Assembly: GCA_013239625.1 (NCBI GenBank)
Contig: MU053559.1
Location: 3,784,607 to 3,811,907, forward strand
DNA from: Lama guanicoe
Lineage: Eukaryota
Direction of reading: 5' to 3'
Length of the DNA stretch: 27,301 nt
Both the position numbers and the translations under genes were made by a program. Below the pieces are notes generated by a model. The model ran no database searches, was not told the origin of the DNA, and saw nothing but the letters and a program-made list of their open reading frames with translations. How positions within the stretch are numbered: position 1 is the first letter of the stretch; the number at the start of each line of letters is the position of its first letter. This document shows, one piece after another, positions 1-19,579 of this stretch.

Positions 1-790
1 GGGTACAGGAGTGGGGCTGGCCAAGGGCGGAGCGGACTTTTCTACCGACTCTCGGGGGGAGTCCGAGGGCGGAGCCGATTCTTCCACCGATACCCGGGCG
101 GAGCCGGGCGCTGAGGGCGGAGCGGACCCTTGGACTGGTACTCTGGGGGAACCCGGGGGTGGAGCCGATCCTTCTACCGATGTTCGGGGACTACCTAACT
201 CAGAGAGTTCGGTGGACAGTTGAGTCGACACTGGGGAGTTCATGGGCGTACGAGGTCCCTGTATCAAACTCCAGGGGCTCCTGAGCACTCGGGGCGGGGG
301 AGGGCCTTGTATCGACGCTTGGGAGGAGTCCGACAGGACGACAGATTCTTGTCCTGAACTCCCAGGGAGGCTGAGGTCTGAGGGCGGGTAGGACCCTTGT
401 ATCGACTCTAGGGAGGAGTCCAAGAGCCGGGGGAAGTCGGGTATTGAGAACTGGCTGGACTCTTGTACTGGCAGTCGCGGGGGGTTGTTGAGGGTAGGAG
501 GTACTTCTACCGAACTCTGGGAGGAGATGGATAGTGAGGACGGGACGAGCCCAAGTAGTGACATTTGCGGAATATTACGGGATAGAGGAGGTGACATTAT
601 TCTGATGGAGTCAGGCATCGAGGGCGAGATGGATTCTTGTACCGCCGCTCTGAGGAACTTTCTGGGTATAGGAGTCCCTGCTACCCGGGGGAACCCAGGT
701 ACTGAGGATGGGCCGGACTCATGGAGGGGCAACCTGGAGGAGCCTGAGGGCGAGACAGATCCCTGTTCGGATACCCGGGGGATGCTGGTG
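1..790 (-). repeat. Degenerate coding tandem repeat, 42/48-nt units (14/16 aa, consensus about G/D-S-P-R-V-S-V-Q/E-G/E-S-A-P-P-S)
   Basis: The motif ggg(c/t)ggagc(c/g)ga recurs at 25, 67, 115 and 157 (spacings 42, 48, 42). More diverged units (SIPRVSEQGSVSPS, GSSRLPLHESGPSSVP, NPPRLPVQESSQFSIP, DSSLESIQGSYPPSDL, DSSQASIQGPPPP) extend to ~790. Confidence 0.8.
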
Positions 791-1197
791 TCCGGGTTAG
801 AGGCTGGGACGGCCCCCTCAGAGTTGGGAGAACGGGTGACAGACATGGGGATCTGGTCGCTAAGGCGGAGGGCGCCAAAGTCCCAGAGGCCAACCTTGGT
901 GTTCGGGTCAGTTGTCAGGTCAAAATCCGTGCTTATTTGGGCGGACGCGCTGGCGCTTTGGGAGTATGTCACGTCTGGTGTGGACTCGTTCGACAGGGAG
1001 CTGGAAAACAGTCCGGAGACGGTCCGCCACTCAGATTGCATGCTCCACTCGGGAGTGGAGGGCAAGGCCGTGCCCAAGGTGGAGGCCGGGTCCGGGATCT
1101 GGGCAGTGGTGTCCCCGGCTCTGGGTGGACGCTCGGCCTCGTGCCGTCTCTCGCCGCTGTTGTTGCTGGGGGAGGCCTCTGAGTTGTGGGCGCTCAT
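1..1197 (-). CDS. 5' part (>=399 aa, runs off the left edge) of a Pro/Ser-rich, repeat-containing, probably disordered protein; long uninterrupted first coding exon or intronless gene
   Basis: Manual translation: ATG at 1197-1195 (context ggaacaATGa, A at -3), in-frame TGA upstream at 1251-1249, no stop codon from 1197 down to 1. Begins MSAHNSEASPSNNSGERRHEAERPPRAGDTTAQIPDP and leaves the window at ...GSARVSVEESAPPSDSPRESVEKSAPPLASPTPVP. It lies directly downstream of a CpG-island promoter, and its internal repeat periods are multiples of 3. Confidence 0.8.
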   Translation of the reverse strand, partial: MSAHNSEASPSNNSGERRHEAERPPRAGDTTAQIPDPASTLGTALPSTPEWSMQSEWRTVSGLFSSSLSNESTPDVTYSQSASASAQISTDFDLTTDPNTKVGLWDFGALRLSDQIPMSVTRSPNSEGAVPASNPDTSIPRVSEQGSVSPSGSSRLPLHESGPSSVPGFPRVAGTPIPRKFLRAAVQESISPSMPDSIRIMSPPLSRNIPQMSLLGLVPSSLSISSQSSVEVPPTLNNPPRLPVQESSQFSIPDFPRLLDSSLESIQGSYPPSDLSLPGSSGQESVVLSDSSQASIQGPPPPRVLRSPWSLIQGPRTPMNSPVSTQLSTELSELGSPRTSVEGSAPPPGSPRVPVQGSAPPSAPGSARVSVEESAPPSDSPRESVEKSAPPLASPTPVP

Positions 1198-1750
1198 TGT
1201 TCCGGAGTGCGCGCGGGCGGCGGTGCTGGGGGCAACTTTCAGCTCTCCTCAGGCCCTCCCTCTCACAGGCGCTCGCCTCTCCCGCCCAAGCTGTTCCCGA
1301 TCCGCCCTCTCGGAGACCTGCCTCGGGAGCCCCGCCCACTTTGAGGGGGCGACGCGGCGCTGAAGCGGCCTGGCCCCGCCCTTCCCGCCTGTACGCGGCG
1401 CGCGCGCGCGTTGGGGGCGCACTCCCGCCCGGTAAGGCCGGACGACGCCACCGAAGTGGGGGTGTGGCTGGATGAAGGTGTGGGCGGGGACACGTGGGGG
1501 TTTCAACCTGGTGCTTTTATTCTTACACTTTAACTAAAATAGGACTGGGCGGAGGGCGTCGGGGGTGGGTTTAGGGAAGCCGGTACTGAAGAAAGCGGAC
1601 CCGGACCGCGAACTCGCAAGGCGCCCCCCCTCACACACCTGGTCTGGCCCCTTTGTGACGTCACAAGGGGCCGGTGAGGTCTGCGCAGTCGCGCGCCCTC
1701 CTTGTGGGGGGAGGGGTGAAGTGAGAAATGTCCCTAGGGGGAGGCTTGGC
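1198..1750. promoter_or_regulatory. CpG-island promoter/5'UTR of the minus-strand gene, possibly bidirectional
   Basis: High GC and CpG content; several GC boxes (e.g. gggcgggg 1482-1489); E-box CACGTG 1491-1496; full CRE TGACGTCA 1656-1663; (CG)6 run 1399-1410; abrupt drop to AT-rich DNA after ~1750. Confidence 0.85.
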
Positions 1751-2393
1751 AGTTATTGGTTTTCTATACGGTTTTTCAAGCTGAAGTTCTTAAAATTGAA
1801 GCAAGTAGGCGAGAAAATTAAGAACTCAGCTATCACAAATTAAGTGGGACCTGCAATTTAAAAGCGAAGGTCAAAGGATGGCTAAGTTGCAGAACCAAAT
1901 TAAAAAAGATGTGTTTCCCCATCCTACTGAAAAGAGGAATATTTACTATGTATATTTTATTGTGCATCAGCCCTTGTCTTGCTAGTTTTATCCCTTCCTT
2001 AAATTTACATCTTATCCTCCTAGAGCTGAATACGTCATCACTAGAACCCTCAAAAAGATGTAATTTTGACATGCATTCAGAGTAAATGATGAGAACTCTA
2101 GGAAGTTAACTGGTATCTGTACCCAAGTGTAAACATTTCTCCTGCCCGCCTCCTCCCAACTCCCATCTGTATCAAATAATATCTTGAAGAAACTGTAAAG
2201 AAATACAGATTTAGTTTTTTCTTTATCCAGTTTTAAGAGCTTTTACTGTCTAGCAAAGGAGTTGAGACATGACTAAATTGGTATCATTTTTATCTTAGAC
2301 TTTGAAGCAAATAAAGAGAAAGTAACGGATATAAAAAATTAAGCTCTTTCTAATGTGATTCTGTCCACCTTTCCCCTTAGTCTCATCGCTTTC

Positions 2394-5240: not shown

Positions 5241-5293
5241 GATGATGGTTATTCCTAAACACGAATCTAGGACATTTACATGTGGCAGTCTCA

Positions 5294-5428
5294 GGGGGAA
5301 GGGCATAGCTCAAGCGGTAGAGCACATGCTTAGCATGCATGAGGTCCTGGGTTCAATCCCCTGTACCTCCTCTAAAAATAAATAAACCTAATTACCCCCC
5401 CAAGTAAAATAAATAAATAATACAATAT
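5294..5428 (+). mobile_element. tRNA-Ala-derived SINE, camelid Vic-1 type, full length with TSD
   Basis: Pol III A box TAGCTCAAGCGG (5306-5317), B box GGGTTCAATCCC (5349-5360), AGC anticodon-like loop and an A-rich tail. Exact 14-bp target-site duplication atgtggcagtctca at 5280-5293 and 5429-5442. Confidence 0.92.
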
Positions 5429-5599
5429 ATGTGGCAGTCTCATTTAACATCTTTTTTTTAAGATGTCTTAATTTTCAAGTTACTTACAGGAAACTGTTTT
5501 ATTTATCTCCAAAATAAAATAATTTTGTGAGGATGAGTGTTGAGTGTGTGTTTGTGTGTGGTTTCAATCTGTGGATTTTTTCATTTTGGGTTTTTTTTT

Positions 5600-6794: not shown

Positions 6795-6935
6795 ATTTTA
6801 GTTTGATTTTGAAATAATTATAGACTCACAGCAAGTTGCAAAAAATAGTAGAGAGAGATCCAGTGTACCCTTTACTCAGCTTCCCCCAACGGTAGCATCT
6901 TATGTAATCACAGTACTTTATCAAAACCAGGAAAT
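6795..6935 (-). mobile_element. L1MC/MD-like 3' end fragment
   Basis: ttttgaaataattatagactcacagcaagttgcaaaaaatagtagagagagatcc...tcaaaaccaggaaat resembles a reverse L1MC/MD terminus. Confidence 0.65.
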
Positions 6936-7060
6936 GTACTTACATAGGTTGGTACAGGTTCAGTGTACCATTTACTCAGGTTCCTCCAACGATAACATCT
7001 TATGTAACCATAGTTCTTTATCAAAACCAGGAAATGTATTTACATAGGTCGGTACATGCT
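6861..7060. repeat. 100-bp tandem duplication (2 copies)
   Basis: 6861-6960 and 6961-7060 align without gaps, with 12 mismatches in 100 nt by manual count. Confidence 0.95.
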
Positions 7061-18060: not shown

Positions 18061-18249
18061 AAATGAAAACCTCAGCACTTGTGCCTGGGTCTCCAGGTCA
18101 AAAATAGCCCCAGGCTGAAACATCCCTACAACTAAGTTTCACCTGAATCTTTTCTTTAATCGCGGTTTTGTTACCTTCCGAGTCAGTCCCCAACAAGAGT
18201 CCTTCTGCTGGATGTCATTCGAACTAGTAGACTGAGTTCGGTTCAGAAG

Positions 18250-18477
18250 CACAAGGAAGTTTTACTGTTCGATGAAAGGATGCAGAGGGCGGGAGTTCCA
18301 GCTCTAGAGTTTGGGCTCTCCCCACAGGCTGTGGGCGGGGCTCCTGTAGGGGGATCTAGTGTGGGGGGAGGGCGGTGAAGGGACGGGGGTTCTCCTTGGT
18401 GTGCGCAGGCGCAGGTGGGGGGGGCCTCCTCGGTATGCGCAGGCGCAGTGCCCGGTCTCTGCACACCGCCCGCTAAA
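18250..18477 (+). promoter_or_regulatory. CpG-island promoter with GC boxes and two NRF1-type sites
   Basis: TGCGCAGGCGCA at 18402-18413 and 18436-18447; GC boxes at 18287, 18333 and 18370; ETS-like aggaagt 18254-18260. Confidence 0.85.
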
Positions 18478-18624
18478 GCCGCCGCCGCGGCCGCCGCCGC
18501 GGCCGCTGCCGCTGCCACCATCTTGAATTGAGGTGTCACCACAGCCGCTCGCCCTAGGAACTCCCGTCTGAAGTACCCGGTACAAGGCCTCTGTACGCGG
18601 CTAAGCACAAAAGAAGAGAAAAAG
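18450..18624 (+). other. Probable non-coding first exon of a + strand gene or lncRNA
   Basis: GC-rich segment right of the promoter elements with no + strand ATG; YY1-like CACCATCTT (18516-18524); candidate donor AAG|GTTAGA at 18624/18625, followed by T-rich intron-like sequence. TSS position is a guess. Confidence 0.55.
18478..18516 (+). repeat. Interrupted GCN trinucleotide tract (13 units)
   Basis: gcc gcc gcc gcg gcc gcc gcc gcg gcc gct gcc gct gcc. Confidence 0.9.
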
Positions 18625-19579
18625 GTTAGACTTTATTTTATTACTCAGTTTCTATTTGTATTCCCCGGGAATTGTTAGTGGGCATGGCTGGTGACAGTTT
18701 CGTCGAGATCTCCTTTCCAAGTGTTTCCATTTACGTACTTCTGAAACAATATTCTAAGGAAGCTATTTTCGTCTGCGTTCGTATTTTAGCTATTTGCGTT
18801 CTTGGCCTTTCTGTTTCCCACACTTGTAATACCTTTTATATGTTATAAGGGTTTGTTTGAGGTCAAGTTCCCTATTCCCAGAAAGCTGACTGTGAGCCAG
18901 AGCTTAGCGTATAGCTTATTATATGGGAAGTAAATTCAGCATCATTCTCAGCATCAGCGTCTGTGGAGAAGTGAAAGGAAGCAGGACCTGCTGTGGGTGA
19001 ACTGCTGCAGACACAGCAAAGGTCCCTTCTTTTCCTCTGAGATCCCACATTCTCACTCACTCTGGACCCGGTAGCCCTTGCTTTAGTCATAAATCAGTCT
19101 TGAACTTGGATATTAAAGGAGTGGCTATCCAGGCATTGGCTTAAATGCTTCTCAGCTTTGAGGTGAAATTTCTAGGCCCCAACAGAGGATAGTCATTTTG
19201 CAGGGTTGTTTCTGTTTATATATATTACTATGTACAACCAGGGAACAGATGTACAGAGGTCCCTAGAAATAAAAGATGGCTGTATTCAGAGCCAGCTATA
19301 TCTATATTAAGACTGGGTAAATGCCTAATAAAGAATCATAGTTTCATTGCTCAAAAGAATGCCAAGTGCCACTCAAAGCAGATAAGGAGGAGTCATGGGA
19401 GACGTTAAGGGGAGTCTTGAAGATTGGAGCCACTCATGGAACATCTTATCCCACCCTTCTCCCTGGGATGGTGCAACCCCATTGGCTCTGCTTCTTCTCA
19501 TCCAGATTGCCATGCACTCATACAGAGTTTATATGGACCGTGTAAAGGACCACGTGGACCGTAGTAAGAAGCATACTGT

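Follow-up and report, generated by a model that had tools for sequence, protein, structure and literature searches.

MAO-A is held on the outer mitochondrial membrane by a C-terminal helix. Sperm GAPDHS, another metabolic enzyme, possesses an N-terminal extension that stems from an alternative promoter and forms a Pro-rich arm. Canonical MAO-A comprises 527 residues (PDB 2bxr). The core promoter of human MAOA carries four Sp1 sites at -239/-14 (PMC6390082, PMC5671571). A second human transcription start site (TSS), about 1.3 kb further 5', contributes 5-8% of MAOA mRNA in HAP1 cells, and the long human transcript includes an extra, frameshifting exon IIA (PMC5874270). The human uVNTR is transcribed (PMC5874270, PMC6617726), its deletion leaves total MAOA mRNA unchanged in HAP1 cells (PMC5874270), and its effect on expression is inconsistent among reporter studies (PMC12254254, PMC6390082).

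The window, i.e. the whole stretch of 27,301 nucleotides of Lama guanicoe DNA analysed here (contig MU053559.1), contains at its left end a minus-strand open reading frame (ORF, 1..1197) related to these systems as follows. Residues 409-935 of the database model P0018 match canonical MAO-A end to end, but are preceded by a 408-aa Ser/Pro-rich leader that matches no solved chain. Human transcript 204 begins some 1.3 kb upstream and includes the uVNTR, i.e. the region homologous to the ORF, but its published description assigns it a long 5' UTR and a 394-aa product truncated at the N-terminus (PMC5874270); the accessible part of that account mentions no upstream ATG or ORF. The primate VNTRs (human 30-bp uVNTR, rhesus 18-bp repeat) and the dog 90-bp repeat are located inside the homologue of the frame, but are treated as transcriptional elements in the available text of the literature, and the guanaco window lacks a VNTR at the uVNTR site. 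In architecture, a long MAO-A would resemble GAPDHS, with a disordered Pro-rich arm ahead of an intact metabolic enzyme.

An open reading frame at the front of MAOA

The ORF consists of 399 stop-free codons, read from 1197 to 1 on the minus strand. It starts with the first ATG (1195..1197, with A at -3) past an in-frame TGA (1249..1251) that closes the frame upstream; no other ATG is found on this strand between 1800 and the start. Its length, its dominance of Ser (85) and Pro (62) and its content of three Lys and no Cys agree with the first-pass annotation of this DNA. The same annotation located the ORF directly behind a CpG island, which is present, but extends over about 1-1900 and encloses the ORF. 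Internal repeats were also claimed: a degenerate 90-nt period exists and is most pronounced over the final 207 nt (61% identity), but Tandem Repeats Finder reports no repeat in 1-1197. Within the 1197 nt, seven ATGs are in frame versus one out of frame. Among 5000 first-order Markov resamples of the ORF, read in six frames each, a single one reached an open frame of at least 398 codons in any frame (median longest 150). The opposite strand possesses an open frame of 323 codons (392-1363, plus strand) without Pfam match, a length reached by 13 of 5000 resamples; it is probably a shadow of the sense frame.

Neither the ORF nor the complete extension has a Pfam match, and the ESM Atlas yields no usable match for the leader. 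The leader contains 16 Ser/Thr-Pro sites and no hydrophobic stretch (19-residue hydropathy nowhere >0.95 in 1-408), and together with the lack of a family match this makes a disordered arm most likely. AlphaFold2 (26-sequence alignment) places neither helix nor strand in 1-419, in a model with a mean pLDDT of 34, low even over the enzyme and too poor to prove disorder.

By its match to database models, the ORF is identified as the first 399 codons of an in-frame extension of MAOA exon 1 that comprises 408 codons. Residues 1-399 of P0018 (935 aa) equal the window translation letter for letter and are followed by nine more residues and Met409, which puts the canonical MAOA ATG 27 nt left of the window; the continuity from ORF to enzyme is read from database models, the enzyme part lying outside the window. 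Residues 409-935 of P0018 match positions 1-527 of the solved MAO-A chain 2bxr_A with 1111 bits, compared with about 900 for MAO-B chains. The amine-oxidase domain PF01593 occupies 431-868 of P0018 (E 1.7e-82) and is present in 16/16 longer homologues of the ORF, 14 of which are named amine oxidase. The MAO-A-type residues Phe208, Ile335, Cys406, Tyr407 and Tyr444 are all found in the enzyme part, and a C-terminal membrane anchor is indicated by the best 19-residue hydropathy of 1.72 at 908. In the gene models the upstream ATG is in frame with the canonical start, without stop or intron between the two; the single-exon models P0095, P0093, P0131, P0136 and P0139 display an intronless run into the end of exon 1. 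The window's protein groups with pig and whales in the tree.

The first-pass annotation was thus right in expecting a long coding stretch free of interruptions, whose repetitive N-terminus leads to a folded domain outside the window; this domain best matches solved MAO-A chains. It erred in suspecting a lineage-restricted gene, as the ORF is an MAOA extension whose frame is open in many mammal lineages. A clear match to a well-known gene, named there as the end of any novelty, exists for the gene (MAOA) but not for the extension, for which neither a Pfam match nor a description in the literature searched was found.

The gene itself is known, and its long form is already part of the automated annotation of many species, sometimes misnamed. 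P0011, P0064, P0092, P0098 and P0132 are long MAOA forms or pieces labelled mucin-19-like, uncharacterized, TPRXL or WAS/WASL-interacting-like by their sources; the MAOA extension reading accounts for the mucin-like and uncharacterized names of some long models. In the literature searched no description of a long MAO-A form was found; most subscription journals lay outside this scope, so an earlier description is possible. MAOA is missing from the searched supplement files of two 5'-extension surveys (PMC9789052, PMC11317171). Pig P0022 (832 aa) has an MAOA front and a differing C-terminus, presumably MAOB-like, and is probably a chimeric model. Three reindeer MAOA models (P0094, P0101 and P0111), which come from a contig of identical length and two of which share the long front and end after early exons, make a local duplication possible.

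Promoter region and transcripts

The ORF spans what MAOA papers call promoter or 5' UTR. CpG-island values (GC >0.5, CpG O/E >0.6) are reached by 16 of 17 300-bp segments starting at 1 to 1601, with a core at 1200-1700 (O/E 0.92-0.99). The region 1200..1900, which comprises this core and eight GC boxes (1220-1552), is likely the upstream promoter of a long mRNA, as suggested by the GC boxes, the order of the dVNTR primers and the human upstream TSS (PMC5874270). The primers of the human dVNTR can be placed at 1796-1777 and 1582-1560, with weak matches and in the expected order. At the other end of the ORF, a 90-bp repeat pair (1..207, minus strand) holds four GC boxes (at 120, 101, 72 and 30), comparable to the four human Sp1 sites; this stretch likely serves the short mRNA as core promoter while also encoding part of the long form. 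Among 20 of the 24 sequencing runs that contain part of 1-1500, five are recorded as RNA (2 studies) and share 0.42-0.46 of its words, a measure of word content only, silent on start site, strand and splicing.

A second CpG island is located at 18200-18700. It contains a (GCC)13 run (18478-18516) with a YY1-like motif right after it, and two exact TGCGCAGGCGCA sites at 18402 and 18436, a count unmatched in 100 shuffles; the factors belonging to these motifs are presumably YY1 and NRF1. The island looks like a candidate promoter 17 kb upstream of MAOA. Elsewhere in the window, a tRNA-Ala-like sequence (5297-5372, within 5281-5442) sits, together with an A-rich tail behind it, between direct repeats of some 14 bp, features that mark 5281-5442 as a tRNA-derived SINE rather than a tRNA gene. 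A 100-bp unit is tandemly duplicated at 6861-7056 (89% identical).

Conservation of the frame among mammals

From 148 fetched proteins 19 were chosen, one per lineage, each required to cover the whole stretch between the first Met and the canonical one: the window's own, a close relative, pig, two whales, fox, panda, two pinnipeds, meerkat, cat, Rousettus, four bat-like records, mouse lemur, cotton-top tamarin and one rodent-like record. The last is so called after its enzyme start, which looks rodent-like, and groups with primates in the tree. Throughout these 19 no stop interrupts the frame between the homologous first Met and the canonical one; the extensions measure 387-599 aa, and their alignment shows 73 distinct gap blocks in its interior. 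The frame 0 of the window is the best match for 13 of 14 tested homologues; the 14th, P0146, is broken. In a profile search 5/18 matches (P0141-P0144, P0147) were unrelated low-complexity proteins and dropped, and a search with the lemur region added no new lineage.

Over the same 13 full-length taxa the tree length is 4.24 substitutions per site for the extension versus 0.59 for the enzyme, i.e. the extension evolves about seven times faster. Stops constitute 2-4% of the amino-acid-changing mutations in the ORF DNA and the extension has undergone at least 1316 replacements over 376 columns, so that 26-46 stop gains are predicted under neutrality; none is seen among the selected extensions, against a neutral expectation of at least 26, in a sample drawn by a protein search that favours open frames. 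Neutral simulation of substitutions left 2/2000 copies open at 60% identity and 0/2000 at 44%, and frameshifting indels, if added, would lower survival further; at the observed divergence an open copy almost never remains, GC-favouring mutation included. For the closest pair (93% identity) 609/2000 simulations stay open, hence this pair does not demonstrate present-day selection in the window's lineage. Across the 19 lineages the frame is retained beyond neutral expectation, subject to the ascertainment of open frames, as protein searches return only lineages whose frame is open.

By these comparisons of sequence the ORF is a real, conserved in-frame MAOA extension, probably translated from a minor longer mRNA into an MAO-A of about 935 residues with a predicted disordered Ser/Pro-rich leader. 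All long MAO-A forms are automated predictions, and the frameshifting exon IIA described in the long human transcript also speaks against this reading. The exon-1 motif occurs in 116 fetched proteins, redundant records included: 53 extend into the N-terminal region, 26 lack the extension and the other 37 are partial. In cattle, lynx, puma and monk seal the models comprise 527 aa; short models do not necessarily reflect a broken frame. P0140 and P0132, which end early, are probably broken frames.

The frame might also be an ancestral coding frame, or one retained solely to let the long mRNA go on producing enzyme, with a leader that is inert or decaying in several lineages, possibly that of the guanaco. 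This is unlikely, albeit with several observations in its favour: the two closest models differ at 29/399 residues in the extension versus 6/527 in the enzyme, few residues of the extension are invariant, the frame is broken in P0134 (by the hominid-type shift treated below) and in P0146 (first Met absent, frame shifted), and later starts are annotated in ruminant, hippo and mole models. The sheep, reindeer and hippo models are annotated to begin at the homologue of the internal Met118 (844..846, minus strand). A merely tolerated upstream ATG should be easily lost, yet this Met is aligned in 19/19 selected full-length extensions, and short motifs persist across orders, e.g. Trp57 in 16/19.

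Less probable still, and rather doubtful, is an annotation artefact, i.e. a GC-rich promoter of stop-poor 90-bp units that is held by transcription-factor sites and open by chance, with predictors extending MAOA to the farthest ATG. The position of the ORF within a CpG island, a 90-nt period that is a multiple of three, GC boxes that spell conserved codons (the most conserved part, the last 60 codons, overlaps the Sp1 boxes), the treatment of the region as promoter or 5' UTR in human and dog papers and the 323-codon frame on the opposite strand fit such an origin. Against it speak the 13 and 11 stops in the other two minus-strand frames across the ORF, the first 130 codons, which lack the 90-nt period and still align in frame across orders, and the neutral simulations, in which the frame almost never stays open at the observed divergence even with GC-favouring mutation. 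The separate intronless MAGE- or RTL-like gene proposed by the first-pass annotation, for which only composition and a repetitive N-terminus speak, is rejected and retains a negligible probability, given PF01593 in 16/16 longer homologues, the MAO-A structure match, a frame that continues into MAOA Met409 and the lack of any MAGE or retrotransposon family match in Pfam.

The primate uVNTR and a putative long MAO-A

By alignment, the ORF covers the site of the primate 'warrior gene' MAOA uVNTR, which is located in frame just after the upstream Met. The homologous site in the window is a length-variable Gly-rich segment at about codons 10-17 (1147..1170, minus strand), without repeat in the guanaco; this assignment is based on in-frame repeats in P0095 and P0134 and on the rhesus primers. 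In the single-exon tamarin model P0095 a Thr-Gly run follows right after the first twelve residues, and the frame is open to the canonical Met415. The rhesus forward primer (PMC10395878) includes the homologous ATG, and the 126-bp repeat begins 42 nt later; by arithmetic on the primers, the reverse primer is in frame too, 85 codons further along. The human uVNTR reverse primer matches the window at 14/20 positions (null P 0.056, weak alone), and the forward primer is unplaced on the window (13/20, P 0.34). Reported repeat units and allele steps of 30, 15, 6, 18 and 90 bp are all multiples of three, but hexamer-based units preserve the frame by construction, so this alone is no evidence of selection.

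In the hominid-type record P0134 the 30-bp unit reads as a ten-residue repeat. Five published human primers can be found in this record in translation, and the amplicon that it implies measures 324 bp, the size published for the 3.5R product. Through its first 251 codons it agrees with the window frame (E 6e-32); from there on it matches the shifted frame of the window (E 4e-26), with a stop about 70 nt before the main ATG. Its last codons are unlike those implied by the human model P0137 (EAW59382, a frame-switching gene model of which the last 105 codons before Met were used), hence P0134 is hominid-type but not proven human. The distance from repeat end to ATG derived from two records is 1136 nt versus 1137 in PMC5237129, which fits the shifted register; the position of -1127 that PMC6390082 gives for the end of the repeat, counted on an older entry, does not. 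Product sizes in PMC4663245 keep the frame, yet are, by hand count, 15 bp longer than P0134 implies. Given these disagreeing distances and product sizes, a human frame shift is likely, not settled.

A long MAO-A form of the kind favoured above would arise from a start site in the upstream CpG island (GC boxes 1220-1552), giving a long exon 1. Scanning ribosomes would reach the ATG at 1197 first, with its A at -3 and a single out-of-frame ATG in the following 1197 nt. The 527-aa short form would derive from a proximal start site inside the last 240 nt, a stretch that would therefore be both promoter and coding. As MAO-A has its membrane helix at the C-terminus, the leader would be a free arm, and its Ser-Pro repeats would most likely tune turnover or docking of a minor enzyme pool, a guess from composition. 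Exact residues may matter less to selection than frame and composition, and in the hominid-type record a one-base shift would have uncoupled leader from enzyme.

More tentatively, MAOA may have possessed a second form, about 400-600 residues longer, since the boreoeutherian ancestor, with the primate uVNTR as a coding repeat in its first codons. Monkey alleles would then alter the length of a Thr-Gly arm, and the hominid one-base shift would leave an upstream ORF of about 400 codons, closed some 70 nt short of the main AUG. If this is true, VNTR alleles could act at translation, uVNTR promoter reporters contain a start codon that has gone unnoticed, and the alleles of macaque and human are mechanistically non-equivalent. 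Under the long-isoform reading, pig, dog, cat, whales, bats and some primates should possess a large, so far undescribed form of MAO-A. MAOA is heavily studied in behavioural genetics, and a conserved start codon and frame across its 'promoter' would provide a testable alternative for the effects ascribed to the uVNTR.
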